A stretch of 64,000 nucleotides of DNA from a virus, in the IMG/VR virus record IMGVR_UViG_3300002461_000857; one strand, written 5' to 3'. The first letter of the stretch is position 1. Each line of letters begins with the position of its first letter. Shown here in pieces: positions 19,441-46,115 of the stretch. The notes below the pieces were generated by a model that saw only the letters and a program-made list of their open reading frames with translations, did not search any database and was not told the origin of the DNA. The position numbers were made by a program, and so were the translations under genes.

Positions 19441-21120
19441 ATGAAAGATGTCATCACGCTTGGACCTGGTGTTTCGATTCGTCTCAGCGGCGTCCTCGAG
19501 GACAAGCTGCTCATCGTTGGAAACAGCAACAGCGGCAAGTCGAGACTGATCAGGGGCATTGCGGAGCAGGCAGGGGAGAGGCTGCCGATCTTCGTGTTTG
19601 ATCTCGAAGGAGAGTTCAGCTCCCTGCGGGAGTATCTCTCGATCTTGATCGTGGGCGACGACGGCGAGATTCCTCTGAGGGTCGACACTGCGGCGAAGTT
19701 GTCGAGGAGGCTTGTCGAACTTGGTGCCAGTGCAGTGCTGGACATGTCGAGCCTGCCCAAGATGAGCAAGCGCCTGTTCCTGAAGAACTTCCTTCAGGCC
19801 ATGATGGTGCTGCCTCGGAAGCTCTGGGGTCCACGTCTCACCTTCATCGACGAACTCCACGAGTTCTGCCCTCAGTCAGGAAGCGACGCTGAGGCACGGG
19901 AGACCGTGAACGAGTTCATGGCCCTGGGTCGCAAGCGTGGGTTCGGTCTTGCTGCTGCAACGCAGCGGATCGCGAAGATCCACAAGGACTCGGCGGCGGA
20001 GTTCAACAACGACTGCATTGGTCGTTGCCGTCTCGATCTCGACGTTGCTCGAGCCTGTGAACGTCTCGACTTTGGTCGTGACCGCCGAGGTGAGCTGCCT
20101 CGACTGAAGCCTGGACAGTTCTTCGCCCAGGGCCCGTCGTTCGAGCACGAGGACGTAGTCCTGTTTCGCAGCGGTCCGGTTCGGACCACGCACGTCAAGG
20201 CAGGTGGCGAGCGGCGGACGATGAAGCCGCCTCCGCCGAATCGCCAGGTCTTGAAGCTGGCGAAGGATCTCCAGGACCTGGACGTGCAGAAGGTCCAGGA
20301 GCAGACCGAGATCGAGCGCCTGAAAGCAGAGATCGAGCGCCTGAAGTCGAAGCCATCGGCAAAGTCGACCCCTGTCGTCGCTCCCAAGGTCGTCGAGAAG
20401 ATCGTCGTCGATCATAAGCTGATCGATGCCGCTCATCGTCGAGGAACCATCGAGGGATCGATCGGAATGGCGAAGCTTCTCATCGCGGCGATCGAGGAGA
20501 TTCGTGTCCCTCTCGACGCTGCGCTCAAGGTCGCTCGATCCAAGGCGAAGGAGGCGCCGCCAGCTGCGCCAAGGCTTCCGAATCCGATCGCGTCTCGCGA
20601 ACCCAATCCGTCGAAGATGACGAAGTCGACCGTGGCCCCCACCTCTGGATCCGACCTAGGCTCGGGGGCGCCCTACAAGGTCCTGATGGCCTTGCTGATG
20701 TACGACGGTGCCGTGAACCGATCGAGGATCGCGATCCTTGCCGGCGTATCTCCGAAGGGTTCGACGTTCCGAAACGCCATCAGCTTCCTTCGAGTGAGAG
20801 GCCTCATCGAGGATGCGGGATCGGACATCCAGGCGTCGGCACTGGCGAGAACGACATATCCTGATGCACCTCGCCTTCCCACCGGCGACGCCCTTCTCGA
20901 GTACTGGCTATCCGAGCTTGGGACGTCCAGTGCCGAGAGAAGGATCTTCGCCATCCTCGCCGAGGCGAAATCTCCCCTCGACGAGAAGATAGTCGCCGAC
21001 CGTGCTCTCGTGAACTTCGGAAGCACGTGGAGAAATGCCAAGAGCCGACTCACGACGATCGGTCTGCTCGGGAAGTACGGGAAGGGCAAGATCGGTCTCG
21101 CTTCCGAACTCTTCGAGTAG
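19441..21120 (+). CDS. HerA/FtsK-superfamily ATPase with C-terminal wHTH-like domains
   Basis: Walker A VGNSNSGKS, Walker B TFIDELHEF, GRKRGFGLAAATQR motif. Confidence 0.85.
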   Translation: MKDVITLGPGVSIRLSGVLEDKLLIVGNSNSGKSRLIRGIAEQAGERLPIFVFDLEGEFSSLREYLSILIVGDDGEIPLRVDTAAKLSRRLVELGASAVLDMSSLPKMSKRLFLKNFLQAMMVLPRKLWGPRLTFIDELHEFCPQSGSDAEARETVNEFMALGRKRGFGLAAATQRIAKIHKDSAAEFNNDCIGRCRLDLDVARACERLDFGRDRRGELPRLKPGQFFAQGPSFEHEDVVLFRSGPVRTTHVKAGGERRTMKPPPPNRQVLKLAKDLQDLDVQKVQEQTEIERLKAEIERLKSKPSAKSTPVVAPKVVEKIVVDHKLIDAAHRRGTIEGSIGMAKLLIAAIEEIRVPLDAALKVARSKAKEAPPAAPRLPNPIASREPNPSKMTKSTVAPTSGSDLGSGAPYKVLMALLMYDGAVNRSRIAILAGVSPKGSTFRNAISFLRVRGLIEDAGSDIQASALARTTYPDAPRLPTGDALLEYWLSELGTSSAERRIFAILAEAKSPLDEKIVADRALVNFGSTWRNAKSRLTTIGLLGKYGKGKIGLASELFE

Positions 21121-22697: not shown

Positions 22698-23171
22698 TTG
22701 AAACGCTCCATAAACCCGACGCGCGCGTCTCGGACCGACGTCAACATCGGAAAGCTCCTCTATCCAGAACACGTCGATCGACCTCCTCCACGTTCGGAGT
22801 GCAGAGGTGGTCATCGTCCGTGTCCTCTCGTCTCGTGCCGGTGGAACCTCTACCTCGACGTCAACGAGTCGACAGGTTCGATCCTCTACAACTTCCCCGG
22901 GATCGAACCGTGGGAAATGGAAGTGAGCTGCGCGTTGGACGTCGCAGAGTCAGGGGAGATGACCCTCGAGGAGGTCGGAGCGCTGATGAACCTCACCAGG
23001 GAGAGGATCCGGCAGATAGAGAAATCTGCGCTTCGGAAGCTGTTCCGACTCGATCAGATCCTCCGTCTACGAAACGACGCCAGGGACTCAGAGGGTCGAT
23101 CGACTGGCCATGAGATCGCGGAGATTCAAGAGGTTGATCGGTTCGATGATCCTGTTGGTGATATGCTCTGA
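22698..23171 (+). CDS. Cys-rich sigma70 region-4 HTH protein
   Basis: CRGGHRPCPLVSCRWNLY...SCALDVA...MTLEEVGALMNLTRERIRQIEKSALRKL. Confidence 0.85.
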   Translation: MKRSINPTRASRTDVNIGKLLYPEHVDRPPPRSECRGGHRPCPLVSCRWNLYLDVNESTGSILYNFPGIEPWEMEVSCALDVAESGEMTLEEVGALMNLTRERIRQIEKSALRKLFRLDQILRLRNDARDSEGRSTGHEIAEIQEVDRFDDPVGDML

Positions 23172-24364: not shown

Positions 24365-24793
24365 TCAGCGTAGCAGCTTGGCTTGCAGCCTCTTCTCTCG
24401 ACCCCATCGCTTCTCGGCGAGTCTACGAGCGGCCTCTGCTGCTTCGGCCGCTGCCTCGGGGCTATCCGGAGCCGTTGCCCACTTTCCCAACGCGTAAGCG
24501 TCAGGATCAGGTGGGGCACACTCTCGAGGTGGATTCGAGTTTCGACCCGAGACAACGCCTTGGACGACGGGTCGGATCTGCTCGAGGACTTGCTCTTTGA
24601 CCTCGGAAGGATAGGCACCCCAAGGATGCGAACCTGTCGAGGTGCTGTCGACGATCACGACTCCGTTCTGATAGACGTAGGCGTGGATGGCGTCCGCGTA
24701 GAACTTTGGTACGGAGATCCCGTAGAAGGTCCCGTACCACCACGTCTCTCCGCGGTTCCAGGTCTCTGAGATCTGTCTCCACTTGACGGTCAT
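24365..24793 (-). CDS. Hypothetical protein
   Basis: 142-aa ORF, ATGA coupled. Confidence 0.65.
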   Translation of the reverse strand: MTVKWRQISETWNRGETWWYGTFYGISVPKFYADAIHAYVYQNGVVIVDSTSTGSHPWGAYPSEVKEQVLEQIRPVVQGVVSGRNSNPPRECAPPDPDAYALGKWATAPDSPEAAAEAAEAARRLAEKRWGREKRLQAKLLR

Positions 24794-25278: not shown

Positions 25279-25623
25279 TCACCGAGTCTCCCCACGCGAA
25301 AGCCTCTTCGCGAGGCTCTGAGGATTCGGAAGGATTGAGATCGCGCTCGATCCGATCTCATTCGGATCGCGGTAGCGCTTGGAAACACGCCGCGCGACTT
25401 CATCGAACCCTCTGGGCTTCTTTCCTACCGAGGCGACCCATACCTGGGTAGGGAACACGACCCTTGACGCAAGGCTCTCCGCCGCCGCCTCGATCTCTTC
25501 CAGAGAGGAGATCGTGACCGTCTCGTTCACCTCTTCCTTCGAGAAGAGAGCGACTTGGACTCCTCCGTCGGTGAGGTAGGCGGGCTTGGCAGAGAGTCGG
25601 ATCTGGGTCGTCTTCATGATCAT
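25279..25623 (-). CDS. Protein with the shared C-terminal tag (LAKRLSRGETR)
   Basis: 114-aa ORF; tag at the extreme C-terminus. Confidence 0.7.
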   Translation of the reverse strand: MIMKTTQIRLSAKPAYLTDGGVQVALFSKEEVNETVTISSLEEIEAAAESLASRVVFPTQVWVASVGKKPRGFDEVARRVSKRYRDPNEIGSSAISILPNPQSLAKRLSRGETR

Positions 25624-25647
25624 GCCCTCCTCGAGGGTCGATTCGGA

Positions 25648-25854
25648 TCAGCGACGGACCGACACGGGGAGGCGAGCGTAGGATCGCGCGGTCATGGGCT
25701 CGAACCCGGACTGCGACGCCCTGCTGACGGCGCGAGCACCGATCGCGGCGACGACACCTACGATGACGAGCGGCATGCCGATCGCGACTGCACCCACGAT
25801 GAGAGCGACCTTCGCACCATCGCTCATGTTCTTCTTTCGTCTGTTCTTCTTCAT
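25648..25854 (-). CDS. Small single-pass membrane protein
   Basis: Basic N-terminus followed by VALIVGAVAIGMPLVIVGVVAAIG. Confidence 0.65.
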   Translation of the reverse strand: MKKNRRKKNMSDGAKVALIVGAVAIGMPLVIVGVVAAIGARAVSRASQSGFEPMTARSYARLPVSVRR

Positions 25855-25875
25855 GATCGTTCTCTCTTCCGTTGG

Positions 25876-27348
25876 TTACTCGGCCGACGTTCCGGTGTAC
25901 TGGATCTTGATCTTGCACTGCAGGCCGGGGCTGACGTCCAGACTCGCCCGAGCCTCGTCGCCGTCCTTCTTGAATCTCGGAAGTCCGGAGTACTCGATCT
26001 CGGCATAGAGCGCGTCTCCGACCGCCTTGACTCGCTTGAGGCGAGGAAGCGGGTTCCACATCCTCTCGTCATCGTCCTGTCCGACGACGAAGTAGTAGTA
26101 GTTCGGAGACAGCGGCCAGTGCTCTTGCTTCTGAGGACACGGGTCGATGCTCGGGTCCTGGATCGTCGAGAGCGGAGCTCCGGGATTGAGGATCGAGACC
26201 TTGCCGTTGACGAACCGGATCCGAAGCTTGTACTTCGCCTTCCACCAGATCGGAACACGGAATCCCTGCCACTGGTCGTAGTCGATCGGCTGGAGTTCGT
26301 CTGCGTTTCGGATCTTGAAGCTGACCTCTCCGACGTCGTCGGGAGGGTTTCCGCTGACGTACGGATCCAGATCGCCGAAGCTCGCCGAGTCCGTTCCGAT
26401 GCAGATCCCGAATCGGACCTCGAACTCGTCACATCCTGGTTCGCCAGACATGAGCTTGATCGATGCGGTCTTCCGCTCGTACCAAGTCGCCTGAGGAAGG
26501 TACTGCGTCGATGTCTTGACGATGGGGTTGTCGAGACAGGTCGGAACCCATCCACCGGCATCCGGCTGTTCTGGGCTTCCGGCTGGTCCGACTGGCCCAT
26601 CGCCGAGATCGATCAGTCCACCTTGGGGAGGCTCTGGCTCGTCGAAGTCGATGCCTCCGATCCCCGGAAGCTCGATCTCTGGAACGATCGACGGATCGTA
26701 GTCGTCCAGGCCCATGTCCTCGATCTGCGACACGACGAGCTCGTCGACCGACTGAGCGTCGGAGGTTCCGAAGACTTTTCCTCCACCGAGGACGATCCGC
26801 CTCCCGATGAGCAAGGCCAGGCTGATGAACAGCTGCTGGATCCGAGACGAAGCATCCGGAGATGGAGGCCACTGGCAATCGGGCCACTGCATCGAGAGGA
26901 ACTTCGTCGCGATCTCGATCGGGTCGGTGAGGACCTTCGTCGTGGCAAAACCGCCGATCCCTGGCGCGAGCCCTGGACCTTGGGGTTCGTCGGGGAGCGA
27001 CTTGCTGCGATTGATCGCAGCGGTGATCATCCGGCTCAGTTGCTTCGCCTGGTTGCTCTTCGAACCGGGAACGAACGCGAAATCCTGGCAGTCGTCCAGG
27101 ACGTAGATCCCGGGTGGGGTCTCTGGAGTTGGTACGATCCCGGAGTCCGTCGACTCGAAACCCGGGTATCGAGGATCGGAGACAGAGGCACCCTCCGGAG
27201 GAGGAGGAAGGATGCTCTTGCCCTTCTTCGCAGGTCGGCGGCTGACCGCCTCGGAGATCCCGTAGCCAACGACGAGCGCGCCCAGGCCCACCGCGGCAGC
27301 GATCGCGATCTGCCGATTCGTGGGATTGTTCCGGCGTTTCCGGCTCAT
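25876..27348 (-). CDS. N-terminally anchored virion-like protein, paralog of 44013-45635
   Basis: MSRKRRNNP then a TM segment; C-terminal beta-rich domain sharing IRNAD, PR(L/F)K and YSG(L/F)P with 44013-45635. Confidence 0.75.
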   Translation of the reverse strand: MSRKRRNNPTNRQIAIAAAVGLGALVVGYGISEAVSRRPAKKGKSILPPPPEGASVSDPRYPGFESTDSGIVPTPETPPGIYVLDDCQDFAFVPGSKSNQAKQLSRMITAAINRSKSLPDEPQGPGLAPGIGGFATTKVLTDPIEIATKFLSMQWPDCQWPPSPDASSRIQQLFISLALLIGRRIVLGGGKVFGTSDAQSVDELVVSQIEDMGLDDYDPSIVPEIELPGIGGIDFDEPEPPQGGLIDLGDGPVGPAGSPEQPDAGGWVPTCLDNPIVKTSTQYLPQATWYERKTASIKLMSGEPGCDEFEVRFGICIGTDSASFGDLDPYVSGNPPDDVGEVSFKIRNADELQPIDYDQWQGFRVPIWWKAKYKLRIRFVNGKVSILNPGAPLSTIQDPSIDPCPQKQEHWPLSPNYYYFVVGQDDDERMWNPLPRLKRVKAVGDALYAEIEYSGLPRFKKDGDEARASLDVSPGLQCKIKIQYTGTSAE

Positions 27349-27402
27349 GCTTCGTCTTCGTCGTGGCACGGGCATCTCCTTGGGGATCGTTCGACCAGAG
27401 TC

Positions 27403-28272
27403 CTACGGGTTCGCGAGTCTCTTGTAGAGCTCGCGATCCCGCTCGGGGTTCGACTGGCGCGGCGGGTTCTGATGCACCGGACCGTAGTCCGGGTTCGAGG
27501 TGCGCGGTCGATTCGCGGCGAGGTACGCCGCGTTGCTTCTGCCGCCGAGGCTCGCGAACTGACCGACGTCGCGATCGCTGGCTCCGCAGTCCTTCCTCGC
27601 CTGCCTCGAGGTCTTCGTCTTCGAAGCACCGGCCACGCAGGCACCGCGCTCCGCCGACCTGGTCACCCGCGGAAGCTTCTTCGGCGCCTTGCGGTACTTC
27701 GGCTTCGGCGTCGCCTTCGGCGCAGGCTTGGTCTTCGGAGCCTTTCGCTTCGGAGCCATGGCCTTCGGGGACTTCTTGGCCTTGCGCTTCTTGCCCTTGC
27801 GCTTCGTCGCGGCCATGGCCTTCGGGGCCTTCTTGGCCTTTCGCTTCTTGCCCTTGCGCTTGGCCTTCTTCGGAGCCGGAGCCTCGGCCGTCGCCTCGGT
27901 CTCCCCGGCGAGACGCTTCTCGTAGGCCTCGTTGGTCTCGCCGACGCGACGACCCGGAACGCCGGACTTCGCCGCTGCCGACTTCGCCGACTTCTTGCCG
28001 CGCTTCTTCGACGACTTCTTCTTGGCGCGCTTCTTCTTGGCCTTCTTGGCGACCTTCTTCACCGCCTTCGCGACCTTCTTCTTGGCGCGCTTCTTCTTCG
28101 CCTTCTTGGCGACCTTCTTCACCGCCTTCGCGACCTTCTTCTTGGCGCGCTTCTTCTTCGCCTTCTTGGCGACCTTCTTCGCCGCCTTGGCGACCTTCTT
28201 CGACGACTTCTTCTTGCCGCGCTTCTTCTTGCCGCCCGCGGCCTTGGCGGAAGTCTTCTTTGCTCGTGCCAT
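27403..28272 (-). CDS. Histone H1-like K/A-rich protein (putative genome-condensing core protein)
   Basis: KKVAKAVKKVAKKAKKKR repeats; four NP motifs near the C-terminus. Confidence 0.85.
   Translation of the reverse strand: MARAKKTSAKAAGGKKKRGKKKSSKKVAKAAKKVAKKAKKKRAKKKVAKAVKKVAKKAKKKRAKKKVAKAVKKVAKKAKKKRAKKKSSKKRGKKSAKSAAAKSGVPGRRVGETNEAYEKRLAGETEATAEAPAPKKAKRKGKKRKAKKAPKAMAATKRKGKKRKAKKSPKAMAPKRKAPKTKPAPKATPKPKYRKAPKKLPRVTRSAERGACVAGASKTKTSRQARKDCGASDRDVGQFASLGGRSNAAYLAANRPRTSNPDYGPVHQNPPRQSNPERDRELYKRLANP
28018..28200. repeat. ~3 x 60-bp tandem repeat coding a 20-aa Lys/Ala unit
   Basis: The 60-nt blocks beginning at 28021, 28081 and 28141 are nearly identical. Confidence 0.9.
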
Positions 28273-28376
28273 GGTTGTCTCGTTTCTCGGTTTCCCCGCG
28301 GACGGGGTTGTCTGTGGCTTACCCTACCAAAATGTGATCCGGATGGAATCTAACCGGTGTTTTTCTTGACACCGGA

Positions 28377-28649
28377 CTAGCGGCTCTCGCCTCTGGAGAG
28401 CCGTCGGGCCAGGATCACCATCTCTGGGGCCTTCTGGCTGGCTCTCGCGATCGCGGCTGCCTTCGTCGGGAAGCTCCTCGTCTCCCCGATATCGATCCAG
28501 GCTTCCGGGTCGACGGCGTTGGCGACCTCCCGGATCGCCTCGCGCTGGGACTTGCTGCGGGCGATGTAGACCGTCTCGTTGGTTCCGTCTCCGTCCGCGT
28601 CGACAGGGATCGCGGAGTACCGGTACTGGGGGTTTCTGGACCTGGCCAT
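28377..28649 (-). CDS. Protein with the shared C-terminal tag (LARRLSRGESR)
   Basis: MARSRNP start, GAGGAG RBS, tag at the C-terminus. Confidence 0.7.
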   Translation of the reverse strand: MARSRNPQYRYSAIPVDADGDGTNETVYIARSKSQREAIREVANAVDPEAWIDIGETRSFPTKAAAIARASQKAPEMVILARRLSRGESR

Positions 28650-28653
28650 CTCC

Positions 28654-28950
28654 TCAGTCCTCCTCTTCTTCAAGAACTTCGGCAAGGCCTTCTCGCATCA
28701 GATCGAGCATCTCCTTGGTCTCTCCAAGCGCGATCTGGGCCTCCTCGACCTGGCCGGGGCTCATCATCGCCGCGTAGTGCAGGTGGGTCGCGGCTTGGCC
28801 GATGAAGAAGTGAGCTGCCATCCCTGCGGCAACCCTCTCGCATCGATCCTCGAGCATCATGGCTCTCGAGATCTGCCCTCGGGCCAAATCGATCGACTCC
28901 CTCGCCAGGCTGACGGACTCCGATGGGTCGTGAGTGTTTTTTCTCCTCAT
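28654..28950 (-). CDS. Small helical hypothetical protein
   Basis: MRRKNTHDP...; ATG overlaps the upstream TGA. Confidence 0.6.
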   Translation of the reverse strand: MRRKNTHDPSESVSLARESIDLARGQISRAMMLEDRCERVAAGMAAHFFIGQAATHLHYAAMMSPGQVEEAQIALGETKEMLDLMREGLAEVLEEEED

Positions 28951-29915
28951 CGGGATTCTCCTCGGGCGAGTCGTCTCGCGGTCGCACACTTGATAGTGTC
29001 GACGCCTTGGATCCTCCTCAGGATGCACAGCGTGGTCTCGACACATGATCGATCCTGAACCTGCTCGAGGAACAAGATCGCGTCGATGTCCGTCGTTCCA
29101 TCCGTGGACATCATGCGCTCGATGTCCTTTCGGAGAGCCAGATCATCTGTGCTGTCCCTGAGCTCCTCGATCGCCGCGTAGGTCCTCTGATCCATCGACC
29201 CCGGATTGTCGCGATGCATCTTCTTGAGCTTGTCGTAGTACTTCCGATCCTCTGCGAGGTGATCCATGGCGATCTCCATCGCGATCAGAGGATCGGTCGT
29301 GTGCTCGAGCTCGACGACGATCCCATCGATCAGTGACGATGGGCAGAAGTCTCTCGGAAACATGCCATGGGCAACTCCACCTCGGATCCTCTGCCTCCAG
29401 GTCGATCGATTTCCGTACTTTCGAACCGTATCCTCAGCGATTCGAAGACGCTTGGCGTGGCTGAGTTCCTCGCGTTCAGGGTTGGACTTCTTCTTCGACT
29501 TCTTCTTCTCTAGCTTCGCATTCCAACCATCCGTGTATCCCCACCACCACTCGTCGATATGCGATGGGTGCTTCTTCCCTGGATCCTTGGGCTTTCGCTT
29601 CTCATCGATCGCGGTTACGAATCCTCGGAAGTTCTCGTTCGAGCGAGACGTAGGCTGCCACAAGATTTTCGCCTCTAGCAGCTGCGTGTCTCGGTACGGG
29701 TCTCCGATGATCAACCGGTCCCCATCGATCGATCCGATCCCTTCGTAGTTGAGAGACGTTGGGGCTCCGTCGGTCGAGAAGATCTGATACTCGAGGTTCG
29801 GAGAGTCGTACTCATTCCCGTCCGGCCCAGTGATCGTGCGAGACACGAGGAGGTAGCCGCGGTTGATGAACAAACGCTGCGTGGTACCGGACGGGTTTTT
29901 CTTCGAAGCGTTCAT
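28947..29915 (-). CDS. Multidomain protein with a DUF5661-like domain and the shared C-terminal tag (TARRLARGESR)
   Basis: LIDGIVVELEHTTDPLIAMEIAMDHLAEDRKYYDKL; domains separated by KKNP, KSNP and RDNP. Confidence 0.7.
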   Translation of the reverse strand: MNASKKNPSGTTQRLFINRGYLLVSRTITGPDGNEYDSPNLEYQIFSTDGAPTSLNYEGIGSIDGDRLIIGDPYRDTQLLEAKILWQPTSRSNENFRGFVTAIDEKRKPKDPGKKHPSHIDEWWWGYTDGWNAKLEKKKSKKKSNPEREELSHAKRLRIAEDTVRKYGNRSTWRQRIRGGVAHGMFPRDFCPSSLIDGIVVELEHTTDPLIAMEIAMDHLAEDRKYYDKLKKMHRDNPGSMDQRTYAAIEELRDSTDDLALRKDIERMMSTDGTTDIDAILFLEQVQDRSCVETTLCILRRIQGVDTIKCATARRLARGESR

Positions 29916-29961
29916 GGACGGGGCCTTCTCGTTCCCCGTTCTACGGGGGAGGCGATCACGT

Positions 29962-30834
29962 CTATCGGCTCTGACCCGACGCGAGACGACGAGCGACGCT
30001 GTTCGACGTGGGAACGTGGCCTGGGTTCGAGATCCGGATCTCTTGAGCGATCGCATCTCCAGCGATCGATCCGATCGTCTCCTCGAGACCGTCGATGAAA
30101 CCGTCCTTGTTGCGCCGGATCTGGTCTCCCGACGCGAGCATCGCTGCTCGGACATACTTCCTGATCTCCTCCTTGAGCATCCTGGCACGCTCCTGGAGGC
30201 GCATGCTGTATGCCTCGGACTGCGAGATCTCGTCGGGATACAAAGGGTTGCGCTTGTACATCCCGTCGGACTCTTCGTAGCGATCGGATCTCTTCACAGA
30301 TCCTGATCCTGCGTGAGACGACACTGCCGTGGCGCGGCCCTTGTCCATCGTCCCATCGGAGTCCTCATACCGATCGGTACGCTTGACTCTCTGACGACCC
30401 TCGAACTGGACCGCTGGCTTCGTGTTTCGCTTCCTCATGACGTTCTTCTCCTTGGTGGCGTTTTGTTCCGATGCGCAGACGACCTGGAGGCCTTTTCCGG
30501 GCCAGTCGTGGTCGTAGCAGATCTGTGTTCCGAGAACTTCTCTAGCCGCACGATCAGCTCCATCCTCGCTCAGATCATTCCACCGCTGGTATGCGATGAC
30601 GTGGCCGACCTCATGGGCGACCAGAGCGCGGAGATGTTCTTCGTTCAGGTCAGATGTTGCTCGAGCAAATCCGAAGTCGAGATCTTCAACTCCGACAGAT
30701 GCGTATCGCCTCCGGCTGTTCCGGTGATCCTCATCCTCTCGTTCCGACCACGACACGCTGGCAGGAGACGGATCGATGCCTGCTCTGCGCAGGGCGGAGC
30801 GGATCATCCTGTCGATCTTGGCCAGCGATGCCAC
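29962..30834 (-). CDS. Zincin-like (HExxH) domain protein with the shared C-terminal tag (VARRLASGQSR)
   Basis: LRALVAHEVGHVIA...EDGADRAA. Confidence 0.7.
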   Translation of the reverse strand: MASLAKIDRMIRSALRRAGIDPSPASVSWSEREDEDHRNSRRRYASVGVEDLDFGFARATSDLNEEHLRALVAHEVGHVIAYQRWNDLSEDGADRAAREVLGTQICYDHDWPGKGLQVVCASEQNATKEKNVMRKRNTKPAVQFEGRQRVKRTDRYEDSDGTMDKGRATAVSSHAGSGSVKRSDRYEESDGMYKRNPLYPDEISQSEAYSMRLQERARMLKEEIRKYVRAAMLASGDQIRRNKDGFIDGLEETIGSIAGDAIAQEIRISNPGHVPTSNSVARRLASGQSR

Positions 30835-30837
30835 AAG

Positions 30838-31803
30838 TCACCGACTTCTGCCCTGGGATAGCCTTCGCGCGAGCTCGACGGGGTTGGATGCTCTCGTCGG
30901 AGCCACGCGAGATGGGTTCGAGTCCCGGGTGTAGTCGAACTCCGAGAGGTCATAGCCTCGCATCATCCCGAACTCGTACGGATCGATGAGCTTGAGCATG
31001 CCTCGGCCGTGGACGTTCCTTGCCTCGTCCTTGTCCAAGTTGTTCTCGATCCACTCATCCGCTCTCCAGTCCTCGAGGAAGACCTCCGAGCCTCTCTCTC
31101 CGAACATGGCCAGGTGCTCCTCGATCCTGCGGCGGATCTCGGCATCGGTCGGTCGGATCGTGAGAGCCCCGGTCGGATCCATCTTGATCTCGACCTCGAT
31201 CAGATCTTCCGGGTTCTTGCGCTTCGCCTGAGCGGTCACGGGGTACTTTGGAACCTTTCCAGTCGTCAGGTAGGCGTCGATCGACTTGATCGTCTTCTTC
31301 GCCGGTGGGAACTCCGGATCGAAACCATTCTTGATCGCCGACTTCAGGGCTTCGATGTTCTCCCTCCCTGAAGAGTCGAGCTTGCTCGACATGGAATCTT
31401 CGATCTTCTGCGCCGCTCCGAGCAGGTGGCCGAGCCGGTAGTAGTTGATCGAACCTCGCTTGGCCTCTCCGGCGCTCACACGCATGTCGTACTGCGTCAG
31501 GTTCGCAGTGAGGATGGTGAGAAATCCTCGGACGGTGGGCTCGACTGGATTGACGTTCATCGACTCTCTCCCTGCGGTCCGGATCTTCTCACGCTTGAGC
31601 GACACGATCGAGATCGGCGCAGATCCGCCACCGAAGGCGACCGATCCGGTCCGGGATAGCCCCTCGACGACCTCCGTGGAGATGTCGTCGTTCTCGTCGA
31701 GAAACTCGCCGAGCGGGCCTTCCCACTCGATTTTCCCGTCGCCGTCCTCGAGCTGGACCATCGTGCTCATGTCGAGGATCGTTCCGACCTGCGATCTCTT
31801 CAT
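30838..31803 (-). CDS. Multidomain protein with the shared C-terminal tag (LARRLSQGRSR)
   Basis: ATGA coupled; modules separated by VNP, KNP and SNP. Confidence 0.7.
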   Translation of the reverse strand: MKRSQVGTILDMSTMVQLEDGDGKIEWEGPLGEFLDENDDISTEVVEGLSRTGSVAFGGGSAPISIVSLKREKIRTAGRESMNVNPVEPTVRGFLTILTANLTQYDMRVSAGEAKRGSINYYRLGHLLGAAQKIEDSMSSKLDSSGRENIEALKSAIKNGFDPEFPPAKKTIKSIDAYLTTGKVPKYPVTAQAKRKNPEDLIEVEIKMDPTGALTIRPTDAEIRRRIEEHLAMFGERGSEVFLEDWRADEWIENNLDKDEARNVHGRGMLKLIDPYEFGMMRGYDLSEFDYTRDSNPSRVAPTRASNPVELARRLSQGRSR

Positions 31804-33218
31804 CGGGAGGCTCCTCGAGCGAGTCGGCTCGCCAGGACGTGTGGGTTCGCAGCGGCTCGGATCTGGGACTCGTCCATGGACTCGGAGTCCTCTGTGTCCG
31901 GCTGGTCTCGAGGGACGAGAGCTGCGACCAGGTGGCCGTCGAGCTCGTGGACCGGGACCACGAAGAGGTTGTCGGTCTTCGACACCTTCTCGGCTCCTCG
32001 TTGGCGAGGTGCCTTGTAGGCGAGGCCCACCACCACCTGCTGAGGATCCAGTGGCCTCGCGTCGCTGAGATCTCCGTCGACGACAGGGACGCCGAGGAAC
32101 TCGGAGGGAAGGCGATGCCTCTGCGTCAAGAAGACGACCGCGACGCGTCGACCCCTGTCGAGCTCGTCGTTGACATCTTCGAGGTTCCGACCGCTGTACG
32201 AGAAGGTCAGATCGTAGTTGGCTGGGTTGTCCCGGTGAGGAACCTTCGTGTAGTCGTAGTACTGACCACTGGCCATCTCGAACAGCTCCGGGAACACCTT
32301 CTCCCATGGGACGTCGGAGAAGACATTCAAGCGGACCATGCGAAGGTTCTCGCTTCTGGCTTGAAGGTGACGACGGCAGGATTCCAGGAGGATCCTCCCG
32401 AAGGCATCAGGCTCCTCGATGAGCGCAGAGAGCTTCGCGGTCTTGATCACCGTGTTGTACGGATCCGCCTCGTTCCTTCCGCTGTAGACGAGACACGACT
32501 CTGCACACTCTCGGCTCGCGCCGACGCAGGTGTTGAACCCGATCGTTCCTGTGATCTTCGACCACACCACGTTCGTAAGCATGGTCAGGCCTTGGACATC
32601 GATCCCGGTCCGACCGTACTTCGCCGCGAGAAGTCGCTTCTGGCCTTCGGAGATCGTCGTCTTCGACGTCTTGTAGTTCTGCCCCAGAAGACTCTGGATC
32701 ATCGACGACGGTGTCGCCCACGCCTTGAGCGGTGCTCCACCCTTCGATGACGGGAAGATCCTAGAGACTCGATCGAAGGCTTCCTGGATCGACATCGCCT
32801 CAACCGCCGAGGCGTTGACGCGGAGCTTCTTCATCGCGCGCCAAGAGACCTCCGGACCGCGTCGACCCAACGGGTTCTGAGCGATGATCTCCCCGAGGTC
32901 GATGCTCCGATCGACGATCACGCGCTCGGAGATTCCAGAAGCGAGTCGAACCGCGTCCGTCTCCGATCGTTTCGTGTCGATGATCGATCCAGAGCTGTCG
33001 ACGACGGCGAAGATCTGCGACTGAGGATTCGCGAAGTTTCGCTTCCGCCCTCTTCCCGATCCGCTCAGCTTTCCACCGCCGTCTTGACGGTTGACCGTCG
33101 CCCAGGCTCGGCCCGCGGCCTCCTCGGCCGGAACACCGGCATCTCGGTAGCTCTGCTCGATGTGCTGAGCTTTCCGTTTCTGCTTGTCGGTGTAAGCGTC
33201 CTTGGAACCTCGCGCCAT
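31800..33218 (-). CDS. Gp88-like domain protein with an N-terminal YTDKQKR domain and the shared C-terminal tag (LASRLARGASR)
   Basis: CVGASRECAESCL, VRLNVFSDVPWE, YYDYTK, YDLTFSYSG (Gp88-like); N-terminus AYTDKQKRKAQHIEQSY...AWATVN resembles a small bacterial protein family. Confidence 0.75.
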   Translation of the reverse strand: MARGSKDAYTDKQKRKAQHIEQSYRDAGVPAEEAAGRAWATVNRQDGGGKLSGSGRGRKRNFANPQSQIFAVVDSSGSIIDTKRSETDAVRLASGISERVIVDRSIDLGEIIAQNPLGRRGPEVSWRAMKKLRVNASAVEAMSIQEAFDRVSRIFPSSKGGAPLKAWATPSSMIQSLLGQNYKTSKTTISEGQKRLLAAKYGRTGIDVQGLTMLTNVVWSKITGTIGFNTCVGASRECAESCLVYSGRNEADPYNTVIKTAKLSALIEEPDAFGRILLESCRRHLQARSENLRMVRLNVFSDVPWEKVFPELFEMASGQYYDYTKVPHRDNPANYDLTFSYSGRNLEDVNDELDRGRRVAVVFLTQRHRLPSEFLGVPVVDGDLSDARPLDPQQVVVGLAYKAPRQRGAEKVSKTDNLFVVPVHELDGHLVAALVPRDQPDTEDSESMDESQIRAAANPHVLASRLARGASR

Positions 33219-33221
33219 GAT

Positions 33222-34040
33222 CTACCTCGACGATCCGCTCGCGAGTCGTCTCGCAGCGCTGCTCGGGTTCGCGGAGCGTTGGTTCCACTCCGCGGTCCGT
33301 TGCTCCCACCACGGCTTGTAGGCATACGGGATGTCGAACCACTTCTTCCCGTCTCGTCCCGTGAACACGTCCGGCTTCGACACGTGGCCGCGATGGACCG
33401 CGTACCAATCCTTCACGATCTTCTTCGTGGTCTCGTTGTACGGAACGTAGAGATCCGATTCGCGGTTTTCGATCGGGACTCCGGCCTCGAGCATCTTCTC
33501 GTAGATGTCGAACTCCTTCCCCGTCGTCTCCACGTTCCTCTTCCTCGATCCTCTCCTTGGGTTCTCCAGGACGAGGTCGTCGAGGGCGACGAGGCTATGG
33601 CTCTGCCCGTTGACGGGATCCTCGAGCTCGATGTGCGCCGCGTCGATCCCCTTGACCACGACGATCTCCACGATCTCGCCGCAGATGCTGTGGCCGGGGT
33701 AGCCCTCGGCGTTGATCCTCACCCGCTGCCCGGGCCCGAGGTTCGATCGTCTTCGTCGGCCCGGGTTGTTCCGCCTCGACCTGGCCTCGTCGGGCTTCCG
33801 ATCTCCGACGTACCCGCCCACCGCAGATCCGAGCGGACCGAGGATGACTGAGCCCACGCCGGCCCCGATCGCGCCCCGACGCTTCCGATCCGCAGGGGCC
33901 CCGACCTGTCCGCCGATGGTTCCGCCGACCACGCTGCCGATGTAGCCGCCGGCCGGGCCCGCGATGCTTCCCAGCAAGAGTCCGATCATCGAGCCGAGGA
34001 ATCCGCCGAGGCCGGCGCCGTTTCTCTTTCTTCGTGCCAT
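33222..34040 (-). CDS. Membrane-anchored multidomain protein with the shared C-terminal tag (AARRLASGSSR)
   Basis: Gly-zipper hydrophobic N-terminal half; ENRESDLYVP...WFDIPYAYKPWW domain. Confidence 0.7.
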   Translation of the reverse strand: MARRKRNGAGLGGFLGSMIGLLLGSIAGPAGGYIGSVVGGTIGGQVGAPADRKRRGAIGAGVGSVILGPLGSAVGGYVGDRKPDEARSRRNNPGRRRRSNLGPGQRVRINAEGYPGHSICGEIVEIVVVKGIDAAHIELEDPVNGQSHSLVALDDLVLENPRRGSRKRNVETTGKEFDIYEKMLEAGVPIENRESDLYVPYNETTKKIVKDWYAVHRGHVSKPDVFTGRDGKKWFDIPYAYKPWWEQRTAEWNQRSANPSSAARRLASGSSR

Positions 34041-34048
34041 AGATCACC

Positions 34049-34540
34049 TCAGAGTGTTTCGAGATCGACGCCCTGGGCCGCGGCCCAGGTCCACATCATG
34101 GAGTTCCAGGTCGTGCCCTGCTGGCCGCTGATCAGGTTCTGCGAGTTCGCGGCGTTGACGACGGCCATGAACGTCTGGGCGTAGAACTTCGCCTCGCCGG
34201 GGTTTCGCGTGTCGGCGGGATACACCGTGCAGGTGGTGGCCTGGGATCGGATTAAGGCGGAGGTCGTCTCGAACGGATCGAAGGTCCCCAGGGCCGCGGC
34301 CTGGCGGACGCCGACACGGATCCGCTCGAGCCACGCCGGGTTGTCGGTGATCGACGGCATCGAACAGGAGGCATCGGCTTGGACCAGGCGTCGCGGCGGA
34401 GTCTTCTTGCTCGAAGCCGAGACCACCGCCGCCGTGGTGAGCAGCACGACGATCCCTCCGATCCCGTAGAGGATGTACTTCTGACCCTGTGTGATCGGCA
34501 GATCCAGGGGGTTCTTCCGGCGATGTCGACTTCGTGCCAC
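34049..34540 (-). CDS. N-terminally anchored virion-like protein
   Basis: MARSRHRRKNP followed by a TM segment. Confidence 0.7.
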   Translation of the reverse strand: MARSRHRRKNPLDLPITQGQKYILYGIGGIVVLLTTAAVVSASSKKTPPRRLVQADASCSMPSITDNPAWLERIRVGVRQAAALGTFDPFETTSALIRSQATTCTVYPADTRNPGEAKFYAQTFMAVVNAANSQNLISGQQGTTWNSMMWTWAAAQGVDLETL

Positions 34541-34567
34541 TTGGAGATTCCTCTTCGAGGTGAGAGA

Positions 34568-34717
34568 TCAGGATTCGGCGGCCCGCCGCTGCTGGGCCTT
34601 GATGCGTCGCTCTTGGAACCGCTTGGCTTCACGATAATCGACGATCCTCCAGCCAGCGTAGGCGACGACCATGGTGGCCCCGAGCGTGATGAGGATCTTG
34701 GTGGATGGGTGCATCAT
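34568..34717 (-). CDS. 49-aa single-pass membrane protein (below the ORF-track cutoff)
   Basis: MMHPSTKILITLGATMVVAYAGWRIVDYREAKRFQERR...; fills the intergenic gap, AAGGA RBS. Confidence 0.55.
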   Translation of the reverse strand: MMHPSTKILITLGATMVVAYAGWRIVDYREAKRFQERRIKAQQRRAAES

Positions 34718-34730
34718 CTGGTCCGTCCTT

Positions 34731-36599
34731 TCATCGGCTCGAGCCGCGGGCGAGCCTTGCTGCGATGCTTCTCGGATCTCGGGATGGGTTCGCGGCGATG
34801 TCTGCGGTGGCCGCGTCCCGGAGCTTCAGGGTTCCGACGATCTTGCGGATCTTGCGGAACCCGTCGGCGCACCGCGCCATGTTGTTGGTCATGGCCGCCG
34901 CGAAGCTCTCATCATGGTAGTCGATTCCGTCCGCGAGGTGGGTGCACTCGTGGATCGCCAGCGCGTAGAGTCTCTTCAGGTCGGTCTGGTCGGTGGGGGT
35001 GAAGGTGTCGTCTCGTCTCCGGGGCGACGTGTAGGGGTTCAGGAGGAGCCACTTGTCCTCCTCCTCCTCGAGGAACGCCGCCTGGAAGTCCGAGGAGAAG
35101 ACCCATCCAACGCCGAAGGGTCGGAAGTTTCCGAGCTGCATCAGCACGAACCTGCAGAGCTCCGTCCACGTCCGGGCCAGCTTCATCGGCTGCGGCTTCA
35201 TCGTCTCCGGCATGAACTTCGACGGGACCTTGAAACCTTCGATCTCGTTGACGACGAAGAAGTCCGGCGACCAAGCGAGCTGACGGACGCTCTCCTCGAC
35301 ATGGTGAGCACCTGCGAAGTCGATGCTTCGAAGCAGCTCCGATGCCAGATCAGCATCGGGGAGCTCGGAGATCCGACCAGACTCGGTAACCCTCGACTGA
35401 GAGAGGAGAGACATGACCCTGGAGATCGCCAGGATGTCCGAGTCGGATATCTCGGTCCGACCATCTCGAGTCGGAGGGATCGACGTGATCTGCGAAAGGA
35501 GGTCGGCCTGGTCTCGACGAGCCTGGAACTTTCCGGCCCCGCTGTACTTCTTTCGAATCAGGCCCTTCTTGCTCCGAAGCGCGGACAGGACGTCCTTCGC
35601 CATGCGGCTGGTGAGATCGCTGATCGCACGACGGATCTCGTAGCTCCTGAATCCGTCACGGTTCGCCGTGAGCACCTGGATCGATGGTGCGATGATCTCG
35701 GCGAGGACCTGCTTCTTCTCGAGAGAGGAGACCCACTCCGAGAACATGAACAGGCCGTTCACACGCACATAGATGTGATTCGAGTCGTAGTCCACGTTGG
35801 CCGTGTAGACCTGAACCGATCCTTCCACCTCTTCGATCAGCGTGTCTCCACGAAGGATCGCCTTAGGATTTGCGATCCTCGTCGTTCCATCAGACGACCG
35901 CTTCGTGACGCGGAAGTTGATGTTGGGAAGGTAGCACTTCGAGATGAACGAGATCGCTGCAGCGTCGCTCGTCGCCTCATCGGCGGGCATCACGACCTCG
36001 AGCCTTGTTCCGTTCAAGTACGGCGCATCTCTGGTCTCGTATCCGACGCCGACGCCATCCACCCTCTTGTTTCGCGTGTGGACGGACCATGAGAGCCAGG
36101 GAAGGATCAGGAGTTCCTTCGCCTTTCCGAACCCTCCAGAGGCTCCGCTTCCCAGCGTCTTGGTCGATCCACCGAGCATCAGGAACTTGTTGATCAGGAC
36201 GTCCTCGGACATCCCGCCGCCGTTGTCTTGCATCGATACCGTGAAGGTCCCATCCTCGTTCTGGGCAACCTCGCAGAGGATCTCTGTGGCCCCTGCGTCG
36301 GCGCTGTTCTGGATCGCCTCCCTCCACCACTTCTCTTTCCAGTCGACGTAGTCCTTGAGTACCGTGGTGAAGAACTCACGACTGATCCCGATCGACGGGT
36401 TCATTCGTCGACCCTTGGGACCGACGAATGCCGCAACCATCTTCACACCGTCCTCATCGATGTGCTCGCCGAGGTAACGAGCACGATCGATGGAGATCGC
36501 AGCGAGGAGGTCTCCGTACGCGTCTGTAAGAGACGACGCTACGTAGACGCCGTCTCGAAGAGATTCGGGGCGGAACGAGTCGATCAGTTCGGTCGCCAT
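34731..36599 (-). CDS. GHKL (Hsp90/MutL/MORC-type) ATPase with a C-terminal HExxH segment and the shared tag (IAARLARGSSR)
   Basis: REAIQNSADA, DNGGGM, GGFGKAK; AIHECTHL...YHDESF. Confidence 0.85.
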   Translation of the reverse strand: MATELIDSFRPESLRDGVYVASSLTDAYGDLLAAISIDRARYLGEHIDEDGVKMVAAFVGPKGRRMNPSIGISREFFTTVLKDYVDWKEKWWREAIQNSADAGATEILCEVAQNEDGTFTVSMQDNGGGMSEDVLINKFLMLGGSTKTLGSGASGGFGKAKELLILPWLSWSVHTRNKRVDGVGVGYETRDAPYLNGTRLEVVMPADEATSDAAAISFISKCYLPNINFRVTKRSSDGTTRIANPKAILRGDTLIEEVEGSVQVYTANVDYDSNHIYVRVNGLFMFSEWVSSLEKKQVLAEIIAPSIQVLTANRDGFRSYEIRRAISDLTSRMAKDVLSALRSKKGLIRKKYSGAGKFQARRDQADLLSQITSIPPTRDGRTEISDSDILAISRVMSLLSQSRVTESGRISELPDADLASELLRSIDFAGAHHVEESVRQLAWSPDFFVVNEIEGFKVPSKFMPETMKPQPMKLARTWTELCRFVLMQLGNFRPFGVGWVFSSDFQAAFLEEEEDKWLLLNPYTSPRRRDDTFTPTDQTDLKRLYALAIHECTHLADGIDYHDESFAAAMTNNMARCADGFRKIRKIVGTLKLRDAATADIAANPSRDPRSIAARLARGSSR

Positions 36600-44012: not shown

Positions 44013-45635
44013 TCACGTGCCTGTGCCGATCGCTTCCACCTTGACGTGGAGCTTGAACTGGGCCTCGGTGTTCCTGGCGTAGAACCTGTCGTCCTCGCCG
44101 CGAACGAAGATCGGAAAACCGGAGTAGGTGATCCTCAGCAAGATCTGGGAGCCGTTGTGGATCAACTTGAAGCGAGGGACCGAGTCCCACTTCCTCCACA
44201 GGTCGGGTTGGGTCTCGGATGCGACAAGGAATCCCGCGGTCGTCCTTGGCGTCGGCCAACGGTTCTCGAGGTCTGGACACACGTCGAAGTCGGGAGTGAG
44301 AAGATTCTCGGAGAGCTGCTTGGTGATCTTCGTCGTGACGTGACGCTCGAACTCCCCCTTGAACTCCCCCTTGAACGCGAGGGGAGTGACGAAGGTGTCG
44401 AAGTTCATCGGCGCCTGATCTGCGTTCCGGATCATGATCCGCATCGTCACGTCCTCGAACTGATCCTCTGGGATTCCCCAGTTTCCAGTGTTGATCCCAT
44501 TGGACAGGGCTCCGAACGGTGTGTTTCCGGGTGGCGCCTTCAAGCAGAGACCAATCCTGATCGTCCAGTCCTTTCGCAGTCGGTTCTGGCCGGTCTTGAA
44601 GTCGAACACGACGATGTCTTGCTTCGACCGTTCCGCGAACGTTCCGGTAATCGAGTACACCTTCGTTTTTGGAGCGTAGATGATCGGATCAGGATTCCAA
44701 TCCGGGATCGCGACCGAACTATCGCCTCCCGTCCCTGCGATGTCTCCAACGCTTGGAGGAGGAACGACGGACAGCTTGGTCTTCGCCTTCGCGATCGTCG
44801 ATGCGATCGTTGCTCCCGAAGGCATCAGGTAACGGTGCAACGCATGGTCGTCGTAGCCTCTCATGGCTCCGTTCCAGATCAGGTACTCCATCCTCGAGCT
44901 CAGGTCAGGAGCGAGGCCACCTTGCTGTCCGGACACGATCGCGGGACGTGCGAGGATGACGTGTCCCTTGTAGGCAAGGAACTCGCTGTCGTCAGGAATG
45001 AGATCTTGCCCGACCAGGATCGCGGCGATCCTCGAGTCGGGCGAAGCTGCGGCCAGGTACGTCTTGTTGCGAACCCGATCGATGAACGCCTGAACCTTGG
45101 TCCTGACGTCGGACAAGGTCTTTCCGTTCAGCTTGATCGAAGGAGGAAGGTCTCCCGGAAGAACTTCGATCATGACCTCCGAAGCACTCGCATCCGAGCC
45201 TTCGACCATCTCCTTGACTTTCGGAGATGCGTAGACGATCCACTTCTTGAGATCGTTGGTGACGATCTTGCTTCCGAAGTTGATCACGCCCGGTGCGGAC
45301 TCGTGCTTGACGATCGACCCTCCTACCGTGGGATCCAAGGATGGTGGATCCTTCGGCGGGATCGGAGCAGGGGGTTCGATCGGAGGACGAACCGGAGGAA
45401 TCGATCCTCCCGACGATCCGGTGAGTGGATCCCAGATCGAAGAGCCTCCAAGCCCCGTCGACTTGGCCTTCTCGATCCTCTCCTTGATCTTCTTCGCTTC
45501 GACGACAGCGATGACGGTTCCGATCGCGGCGAGTCCGATCCCAACGATCCATGCCGTATGGACCGGATTCGATTTCCTACGCTTGGCCTTGGCTCGTCGA
45601 CGAGGCGCAGGGTTGATGACTCGAAGCTTTCCCAT
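44013..45635 (-). CDS. N-terminally anchored virion-like protein, paralog of 25876-27348
   Basis: MGKLRVINP...RRKSNP followed by a TM segment; beta-rich C-terminal domain. Confidence 0.75.
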   Translation of the reverse strand: MGKLRVINPAPRRRAKAKRRKSNPVHTAWIVGIGLAAIGTVIAVVEAKKIKERIEKAKSTGLGGSSIWDPLTGSSGGSIPPVRPPIEPPAPIPPKDPPSLDPTVGGSIVKHESAPGVINFGSKIVTNDLKKWIVYASPKVKEMVEGSDASASEVMIEVLPGDLPPSIKLNGKTLSDVRTKVQAFIDRVRNKTYLAAASPDSRIAAILVGQDLIPDDSEFLAYKGHVILARPAIVSGQQGGLAPDLSSRMEYLIWNGAMRGYDDHALHRYLMPSGATIASTIAKAKTKLSVVPPPSVGDIAGTGGDSSVAIPDWNPDPIIYAPKTKVYSITGTFAERSKQDIVVFDFKTGQNRLRKDWTIRIGLCLKAPPGNTPFGALSNGINTGNWGIPEDQFEDVTMRIMIRNADQAPMNFDTFVTPLAFKGEFKGEFERHVTTKITKQLSENLLTPDFDVCPDLENRWPTPRTTAGFLVASETQPDLWRKWDSVPRFKLIHNGSQILLRITYSGFPIFVRGEDDRFYARNTEAQFKLHVKVEAIGTGT

Positions 45636-45641
45636 GGTCTG

Positions 45642-46115
45642 TCACCTTCGACGTACCGAGTTGATTCGAAGCGCCTTGCGACCCTGTCGATACATCGACA
45701 CCGGAACCTTCACCGGGCATCCGTTGGTCGTGATCGACCGGCTTGCTTGATACCCAAGGATCGTCCACAGCGTGGATACCGACGGATGATCGCCGGAGAT
45801 CGGAGGCCATGGAAAATCCGGAAACAGCTTCTTCGCCGCGCAGAGCTGAGTCTCTTCGACGATCGTCTCCGGAGTCGCACCGGTGATCATGGAGACGCAC
45901 TCGCACACGATCTGATCGATGATCTCGTAGTCCTCTGGTTCCTCAGGAAGCTTCATCGCGAAGTCAGGCTGAGGAAGACGGAGATCCGTGATCTGCGAAG
46001 GCAGCTGCTTCATGGCAGCGCTCGTGAGCTCGCGTATCTTACGATTCTGGATGACGCCGTAGCCGACGATAGCTCCGGCGACGAGGCCTCCGGCGATCCA
46101 TAGGATGGGAATCAT
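45642..46115 (-). CDS. N-terminally anchored virion-like protein
   Basis: MIPILWIAGGLVAGAIVGYG...; FPDFPWPP resembles WPDCQWPP in 25876-27348. Confidence 0.7.
   Translation of the reverse strand: MIPILWIAGGLVAGAIVGYGVIQNRKIRELTSAAMKQLPSQITDLRLPQPDFAMKLPEEPEDYEIIDQIVCECVSMITGATPETIVEETQLCAAKKLFPDFPWPPISGDHPSVSTLWTILGYQASRSITTNGCPVKVPVSMYRQGRKALRINSVRRR

Follow-up and report, generated by a model that had tools for sequence, protein, structure and literature searches.

A probable lineage-specific C-terminal address tag on unrelated proteins in a clade of large uncultured viruses

Eight unrelated genes of one viral module end in the same peptide

We analysed a 64,000-nucleotide stretch of viral DNA (IMG/VR record IMGVR_UViG_3300002461_000857, hereafter the window). 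It forms part of a contig of 175,068 bp (ENA ERZ922818, k127_126615) that was obtained from an activated-carbon metagenome. On its minus strand, eight genes encode the peptide RL[AS]xGx[ST]R directly before the stop codon, at positions 25279, 28377, 28947, 29962, 30838, 31800, 33222, and 34731. The consensus of these eight carriers is A-x-R-L-[AS]-x-G-x-[ST]-R, which we call the tag. The eight copies had been listed in an earlier reading made without database searches (the sequence-only reading), and each was found as listed, on the minus strand and flush with the stop codon. The tagged genes lie in a 27-kb one-directional module (23887-50843, minus strand) that encodes many small membrane proteins, a histone-H1-like protein, and fibre-like proteins.

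The gene at 34731..36599 (minus strand, as are all genes in this paragraph) encodes a 622-residue ATPase of the GHKL family (Pfam HATPase_c_3), which is Hsp90/HtpG-like, has a C-terminal HExxH region, and ends in IAARLARGSSR after a disordered linker containing an Asn-Pro (NP) dipeptide. It is followed by a 272-residue protein with an N-terminal glycine-zipper membrane region (33222..34040; tag AARRLASGSSR, preceded by ANPSS) and a 472-residue GP88-domain protein (31800..33218; Pfam GP88, E 2e-24; phrog_1617, E 3e-40; tag LASRLARGASR, preceded by ANPHV). Further along lie a 310-residue acidic protein of unknown family (30838..31770; LARRLSQGRSR, preceded by SNPVE), a 290-residue protein with an HExxH motif at residue 74 (HEVGH; 29962..30834; VARRLASGQSR), and a 322-residue protein containing DUF5661 (28947..29915; Pfam DUF5661, E 2.6e-8; TARRLARGESR). 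The last two carriers are a basic protein of about 90 residues with an MARSRNP leader (28377..28649; LARRLSRGESR) and a 114-residue protein (25279..25623; LAKRLSRGETR, preceded by PNPQS). For two of the genes, 28947..29915 and 30838..31770, the reading frames indicated later starts than that of the longest open reading frame.

The bodies of the eight carriers are mutually unrelated, the best BLASTP result among them being one 35-residue match with an E value of 0.001. The sequence-only reading had described them as otherwise unrelated; its GHKL, GP88, and DUF5661 assignments were borne out by Pfam, and the HExxH motif that it mentioned is present in two of the carriers, encoded at 29962 and by the GHKL gene. 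Neither of these two tagged HExxH proteins matched a peptidase family in Pfam. At three junctions (25279/25278, 30838/30834, and 33222/33218) the tagged gene is separated from the next in-frame gene by its stop codon plus zero or one codon, where read-through would give fusion proteins; three in-frame junctions out of seven is within chance.

The tag is conserved as a peptide and confined to C-termini

A six-frame scan of the window with the pattern R[LIVM][AST]xGx[ST]R returned eight matches at stop codons versus two elsewhere, both in non-coding frames. The motif is thus not equally common internally, a result that would have counted against the earlier reading by its own terms. Unbiased clustering of all C-termini from 121 sequences, with a threshold set at the 99.9th percentile of the between-locus null, recovered the same eight window tags.

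Compared pairwise over their 11 codons, the tags averaged 67% amino acid identity and 56% nucleotide identity. Different codons were used in 147 of the 205 pairs of identical residues (72%), in line with the claim of the sequence-only reading that conservation is at the protein level. We considered whether the repeat could instead be a nucleic-acid element, such as a Shine-Dalgarno sequence, a coupling signal, a terminator, or a recombination site, with the peptide being incidental. Some copies do contain GCGAG...CTCGC palindromes, or GGAG-like strings that precede the following start codon by a few bases. However, glycine is encoded by GGG, GGC, GGA, and GGT, arginine by five codons, and nearly all positions vary; several tags lie far from the next start codon, and related viruses carry quite different peptides at the same position. 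Folding of the 60 nucleotides around the tags gave no consistent RNA structure (z from -1.9 to +1.4). A nucleic-acid repeat, ribosome-binding (Shine-Dalgarno) site, or hairpin was therefore ruled out by the codon diversity, the lack of a common fold, and a nucleotide identity lower than the amino acid identity, and we assign this explanation a negligible probability. The tag is under selection as a peptide, at the protein level rather than the DNA level, and these results support a portable, strictly C-terminal, protein-level signal on unrelated carriers.

The earlier reading knew of no description of the motif, and none was found in the searchable literature. A search for relevant literature on DUF5661, PF17338, or phage Hsp90 likewise returned none.

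Further carriers and tag variants

The left flank of the contig was examined for 8.4 kb beyond the window edge. About 5 kb left of the window, it encodes a ninth carrier, a 252-residue RelA_SpoT protein (Pfam, E 4.5e-15) with the C-terminus NPEQIRLASRLARGASR. It shares all 11 tag residues with the GP88 protein, and the two coding sequences differ there at five synonymous sites. The set of eight in the sequence-only reading was thus correct in its members and too small, since this protein outside the window is tagged as well.

Variants of the tag were also seen. A 289-residue lysine-rich, histone-H1-like protein with an isoelectric point of 11.6 (27403..28272, minus strand) has the variant ending LYKRLANP. 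It is made of KKVAKKAKKKRAKKK-type repeats, as in histone H1, has three NP sites near its end, and is probably a DNA-condensing core protein. The same KRLANP variant closes a 434-residue protein left of the window (C-terminus LAKRLANP). A 142-residue protein (24365..24793, minus strand) ends in AARRLAEKRWGREKRLQAKLLR (KRLQAKLLR), which is like the KLKxKLLR type of a related virus, L001; this ending is a possible divergent tag, the likeness being weak and missed by the unbiased clustering.

Separately from the tag, a second common C-terminal motif, [LIP]-x-SVRR, was observed on the minus strand at 40546-41340, 45642-46142, 47713-49131, and 25648-25854, with RLISVRRRSIAA, RINSVRRR, RPISVRAVR, and LPVSVRR as examples. 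The orthologue of the 40546-41340 protein in the relative L085 has the C-terminus IRSVMRRISVGA.

Tagged relatives carry versions of their own

Scans with DNA or with single proteins found no close relatives in phage records, IMG/VR, or species genomes. Relatives were reached through homologues of the GHKL protein, and the DNA around several of those genes was examined for common C-termini. In L001, eight proteins end in KLKxKLLR, among them the orthologue of the GP88 protein, with KLKSKLLR. Seven proteins of L003 end in R[LM]GxRI... or ISRRV..., and three of L004 have endings of the same kind. Three proteins in L002 and four in L005 have a KxRL..[YW] ending, ARLARGE[SNI] was found on three or four proteins in L042 and L085, and five proteins of L041 have a non-basic NP-x(1-3)-[LI][IM]PWW ending. 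No tags were found in other, tagless relatives (L006, L010, L012, and others).

The versions sit on several neighbouring, partly orthologous proteins in each relative, and the orthologues of the GHKL, GP88, DUF5661, HExxH, and glycine-zipper proteins all carry the version of their own genome. Tag similarity was 2.37 BLOSUM units per residue within genomes versus -0.44 between genomes, and none of 5000 label permutations was as extreme, the tags in this test having been chosen by eye. In an unbiased check, the type-specific patterns were confined to C-termini of their own genome. In the clustering of C-termini, tag clusters emerged for the window and, among the seven tagged relatives, for five: L001, L003, L042, L085, and L041. 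Besides these, it yielded only two clusters, one being noise from weak open reading frames of the window and the other a family of paralogous membrane proteins in L047.

In a tree made from the GHKL core without the tails, one clade (approximate likelihood-ratio support 99) consists of 22 sequences that are all tailed, and its sister clade of 40 sequences has no tails. Tailed sequences outside both clades are P0037, with a PWW tail, and P0067 and P0118, with acidic NP tails; in P0118 the acidic tail is limited to the GHKL protein. As a side observation, untagged M23 peptidases are encoded beside tagged genes, at 14368-15354 of L122 (the window's own contig) and at 1120-2001 and 6114-7106 of L001.

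Agreement of the tags within a genome and their difference between genomes point to a shared, co-evolving partner that would be encoded by the virus. We favour one such partner because the peptide is constant across unrelated proteins while its codons drift, and because it is replaced as a set in relatives. Since the replacement is set-wise, a conserved host machine is a poor explanation; since one version is the non-basic PWW tag, generic charge binding to DNA is not the common principle.

These observations bear on two other explanations. In one, the tails are signals for an AAA+ unfoldase or protease, either ClpX-like and of the host or encoded by the virus, which would limit the lifetime of dangerous enzymes or unfold them for translocation. 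ClpX motifs of the ssrA (LAA-like) and MuA classes end flush with the free C-terminus. The MuA-type basic C-terminal signal (RRKKAI) is a known ClpX class, and it resembles two basic tag types of the relatives (types B and C), which have a hydrophobic end; a potentially toxic RelA/SpoT enzyme is among the carriers, and the window encodes a HerA/AAA-like ATPase at 19441..21120. The type A tag of the window ends in [ST]R, and type E consists of PWW followed by 0-2 residues. Against this explanation, tags of types B and E are not always flush with the C-terminus. Rapid lineage-specific change, including the switch to PWW, does not fit a conserved host machine, and structural-looking carriers such as the Lys-rich protein share the tag core. 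Taken together, we consider a role in unfolding or degradation very unlikely.

Under the other explanation, the tails would act as amphipathic basic helices or Trp-rich interface motifs and so serve as peripheral membrane anchors, holding soluble proteins at the internal membrane of the virus or the inner membrane of the host; no specific protein receptor would be needed. C-terminal amphipathic helices serve as membrane anchors in MinD and FtsA. The module is rich in small membrane proteins, the tag is predicted to be helical with hydrophobic residues at i and i+4, and the PWW type resembles an interfacial anchor. Amphipathicity, however, is what is conserved in the MinD and FtsA targeting sequences, whereas the tags of one genome hardly vary in sequence although their codons have drifted. 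The eight to nine tags per genome are near-invariant, with the glycine and the [ST]R end fixed, while genomes differ sharply, and the hydrophobic content of the type A tag is low (two Leu and one Ala). The near-identity of the tags within a genome therefore argues against simple lipid binding, for which amphipathicity would suffice, and we regard membrane anchoring as unlikely.

An Asn-Pro dipeptide separates the tag from the protein body

Six of the eight window carriers have an NP dipeptide no more than 13 residues ahead of the tag; the sequence-only reading had noticed it in five. Its usual spacing is two residues ahead of the first hydrophobic residue (NP-x-x-L-A-R-R-L), it stands almost always between protein body and tag, and it is the most conserved part of the GHKL extension among homologues. 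In the minus-strand module, NP occurs 68 times, versus 19.8 expected from composition (3.4-fold); in the rest of the window, it occurs 19 times versus 13.4 expected. The enrichment is 5.5- to 6-fold in the nearest relatives (L003, L004, and L085) and about 1- to 1.5-fold in tagless relatives. The NPs of the module cluster within 40 residues of protein ends, often after basic residues. Many neighbouring membrane or fibre-like proteins have a basic or RLA-like N-terminal leader closed by NP, for example MGKLRVINP, MLANP, MAKRRRKRPRNP, and SRLANPLR.

Because NP separates a terminal peptide from the body at either end of a protein, it is likely to be a hinge or a maturation cleavage site used throughout the module. 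Such a site would be comparable to the one that frees the herpesvirus scaffold tail. Cleavage itself we propose tentatively, at somewhat less than even odds. Propeptides that target a protein and are then removed are known with other sites, LxE in T4 and AxE in SPN3US (PMC10052503).

A more elaborate view takes NP and the variable tail as a two-part sorting signal, in which the tail would dock a client on a virus-encoded receptor or protease that either cuts at NP or transfers the client, as asparaginyl ligases and sortases do. Effectors, histone-like proteins, and structural proteins would then be released or covalently fixed in a very large membrane-containing virion without recognisable Caudoviricetes hallmark genes, and the N-terminal NP leaders and C-terminal NP-tags would be two orientations of one system. 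We judge this combined scheme distinctly improbable.

The Hsp90-like GHKL protein is a conserved neighbour of the tagged genes

In Foldseek searches, an AlphaFold model of the GHKL protein (mean predicted local distance difference score, pLDDT, 87) matched Hsp90, TRAP1, and HtpG over residues 88-577, with E values of 1e-11 to 1e-12. Its HExxH motif is at residue 550, within an invariant HExxH...HDE cluster in the C-terminal helices. In the model, residues 595-607, which include the NP, are disordered, and residues 609-617 form the tag helix; such a linker and short helix, as modelled, are what a tethered docking element would look like.

Metagenomes contain more than 300 homologues of the protein, and the contigs that encode them reach 273 kb; long tagged relatives include the contigs of P0007 (168 kb), P0017 (159 kb), and P0027 (109 kb). 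Distant homologues end after a conserved ...IRMRG segment and a short acidic end, or run into extra fused domains. In the closest group, the extension consists of a few residues, NP, a spacer, and the lineage-specific tail. In tagless relatives (L011-L018, P0081, and P0086) the GHKL protein reaches 780-1170 residues through domain fusions, and DUF5661 is the fused domain in P0081, P0086, and L012. In L003, the GHKL protein carries at its N-terminus a fused homologue of the HExxH protein encoded at 29962..30834.

The GHKL gene neighbours the tagged genes in every relative, and its product may be the hub or chaperone of the system, although it is tagged like other clients. A stronger form of this idea is that the tags assemble the carriers into a non-covalent 'polyvalent' complex around the GHKL-HExxH protein, and that this complex is their immediate destination. 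A model for such docking exists in the EEVD tails that bind TPR co-chaperones, and the Hsp90-like fold, the conserved gene neighbourhood, and the fusions of GHKL with DUF5661 and with HExxH, read as Rosetta-stone fusions, speak for it. Against it, the GHKL protein itself is tagged like any other client, and the tagged RelA/SpoT gene lies about 30 kb from the cluster. A complex around the GHKL protein as the end point therefore seems to us very improbable.

Where the tagged proteins are likely to go

The sequence-only reading had proposed that the tag loads accessory effectors into the virion. Its portable C-terminal signal is upheld by the unrelated carriers and by the restriction of the motif to C-termini, while the destination is supported indirectly, by the cargo domains and the context of the module. 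The carriers include RelA/SpoT, HExxH, and GP88 domains, and in other phages RelA/SpoT and metallopeptidase domains occur as fusions with MuF or portal proteins, for which packaging in the head is predicted (PMC5512222). In phage Tunturi_5, GP88 is fused to InPase; the gene is annotated as a minor head protein and adjoins a polyvalent protein with ART-PolyVal, NUDIX, and GNAT domains. The P0008 contig, too, has an ART-PolyVal gene close to its GHKL gene. Because tagless relatives fuse DUF5661 and other domains to the GHKL protein, the tag could be a non-covalent substitute for fusion.

On this basis, we propose the following reading. A flexible, NP-containing linker is followed by a short helix, whose sequence is constant within a genome and different between related viruses. 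A single virus-encoded partner would recognise this helix and so gather a changing set of unrelated accessory enzymes. Their most likely destination would be the assembling particle, either inside the procapsid or in an internal membrane or core, and the enzymes would then be delivered from there with the DNA. NP would mark where the tag is hinged or is cut off by a maturation protease. That the tag is a C-terminal docking element with one shared partner is, in our judgement, highly probable. The virion as destination is drawn from context, because none of the proteins searched could be recognised as a capsid, portal, terminase, or scaffold protein, and we give it an even chance. For the whole explanation, combining docking tag, virion destination, and NP as hinge or cleavage site, we estimate a probability of about 0.5.

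Several results weigh against it, in addition to the choice by eye of the tags that entered the permutation test. Pfam and PHROGs searches recognised no capsid, portal, terminase, or scaffold protein among about 40 window proteins, and Terminase_6N, TerL_ATPase, Phage_capsid, and Phage_portal had no match in five relatives from IMG/VR (those of L008, L009, L010, L012, and L019; 110-179 kb), four of which are tagless and at least 90% complete. No receptor for the tag was identified; the sole complex prediction, of GHKL residues 1-603 with the last 45 residues of the GP88 protein, scored 0.00 and was counted neither way. PWW and basic amphipathic tags could, moreover, both be membrane-interface anchors.

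In a further explanation, the tails are C-terminal translocation signals for a coupling ATPase of the FtsK/HerA type, as in substrates of type IV secretion, and would direct proteins through a channel encoded by the virus or by an element. VirB/D4 substrates typically have Arg-rich C-terminal signals, and the tags of types A-D are likewise charged. A HerA/FtsK-like P-loop ATPase is encoded in the window at 19441-21120 (DUF87, phrog_2666), and PcfJ-like and ArdC-style domains, which are found in conjugative elements, occur among the carriers of relatives. Apart from this HerA/AAA-like ATPase, however, no VirB or VirD4 family or other component of a type IV secretion system was seen among the window proteins; the ATPase has no detectable counterpart in the five IMG/VR relatives, and the PWW type is non-basic. 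We regard secretion of this kind as extremely unlikely.

Other proteins of the module were inspected as candidates for particle components. The 540-residue protein at 44013..45635, named as a capsid candidate in the sequence-only reading, did not stand up as one. Its model (pLDDT 80) shows no double jelly roll; it consists of an alpha/beta domain and a tailspike- or fibre-like C-terminal beta-sandwich, with Z scores of 7-9 to tailspike and fibre domains, versus about 5-6 to capsid jelly rolls, and 9.0 to a Klebsiella jumbo-phage baseplate protein. A transglutaminase-like protease at 46112..46807 had no Pfam support, and ESM Atlas look-ups for three proteins were uninformative. The 540-residue protein and a 499-residue protein (25876-27375) are paralogues, matching the same L003 protein with E values of 1e-12 to 1e-61, and homologues of these fibre-like paralogues number only 35 among 1.8 billion representative proteins. 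The 499-residue paralogue has a basic leader closed by RRNNP; the 540-residue protein and a neighbouring 391-residue protein (42836-44011) both start with KLR[VI]INP. A 172-residue membrane protein (40021-40539, minus strand) combines a basic NP leader with a C-terminal run of about 25 alternating Asp and Glu residues, which is a possible electrostatic partner of basic tails or leaders.

Outside the module, the flanks encode thymidylate synthase (17437-18279, minus strand; E 1e-99), thymidylate kinase (21946-22632, plus strand; E 6e-39), a sigma-70 region-4 protein (22698-23171, plus strand), and a radical-SAM-like protein (14040-15107, minus strand).

Comparison with known address signals

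C-terminal tails that dock inside a forming shell are known from the HK97 maturation protease, the herpesvirus scaffold and protease, and the P22 and 80alpha scaffolds; such tails bind the major capsid protein inside the procapsid, and in herpesvirus, two different proteins have the same tail, which is cut off at a nearby maturation site. Like these, the tag is a short C-terminal peptide on a flexible linker. The HK97 and herpesvirus tails, however, are found on one or two assembly proteins, whereas the tag is carried by nine or more unrelated proteins; no shell protein is identified here, and NP cleavage is our proposal.

The cargo-loading peptides of encapsulins resemble the tag in being C-terminal, short, portable, and present on unrelated cargo enzymes, and they are co-adapted to their shell. 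They lie at the extreme C-terminus after a flexible linker, as does the tag according to the GHKL model, and a ferritin-like protein carries the tag in L001. The peptides of family 1 encapsulins are Gly/Ser/Leu-rich and extended, unlike the consensus A-x-R-L-[AS]-x-G-x-[ST]-R. Encapsulins are encoded in a cellular operon, whereas the tag occurs in a 175-kb virus. Pfam and PHROGs searches found no gene for an HK97-fold shell in the module, and Phage_capsid was absent from the five relatives, although remote homologues could escape such searches.

The capsid-targeting sequence of T4 and the propeptides of SPN3US and phiKZ are short address peptides common to internal or ejected proteins and removed by the prohead protease, and in the heads of giant phages many proteins are processed in this way (PMC10052503). 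Those signals are N-terminal, whereas the tag is C-terminal and its putative site is NP instead of LxE or AxE; separate N-terminal basic leaders closed by NP do occur beside the C-terminal tag.

Polyvalent and MuF effectors share with the tagged set the RelA/SpoT and metallopeptidase-like HExxH domains and a predicted delivery with DNA (PMC5512222). The polyvalent link of GP88 is only through the InPase fusion in Tunturi_5, and GHKL or Hsp90-like domains are absent from the paper on polyvalent proteins (PMC5512222). Polyvalent proteins have 2-15 effector domains in one polypeptide, whereas the carriers here are separate one- or two-domain proteins with the same tail, and fused forms occur only in tagless relatives. 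The tag appears to belong to none of the systems compared, differing in its consensus, its C-terminal position, its many carriers, and its set-wise diversification.

Implications for the biology of these viruses

The tag is very probably a terminal address tag in an unstudied clade of large viruses, and its C-terminal, lineage-specific form is undescribed in the searchable literature. If the tag is a loading signal, the cargo that viruses of an uncultivated clade bring into their host could be listed from sequence only; it would include an alarmone synthetase, metallopeptidase-like proteins, and an Hsp90-like ATPase. The tags, of which there are at least five types, would also offer a natural, minimal (about 11 residues), orthogonal tag-receptor set by which foreign proteins might be packaged. 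Their covariation across genomes gives a starting point from which co-evolution analysis could identify the receptor. A non-covalent alternative to the giant 'polyvalent' effector proteins of other phages is suggested by the system, and the tag may help to reveal how particles are built in these 100-270-kb viruses, which have no recognisable capsid, portal, or terminase genes.

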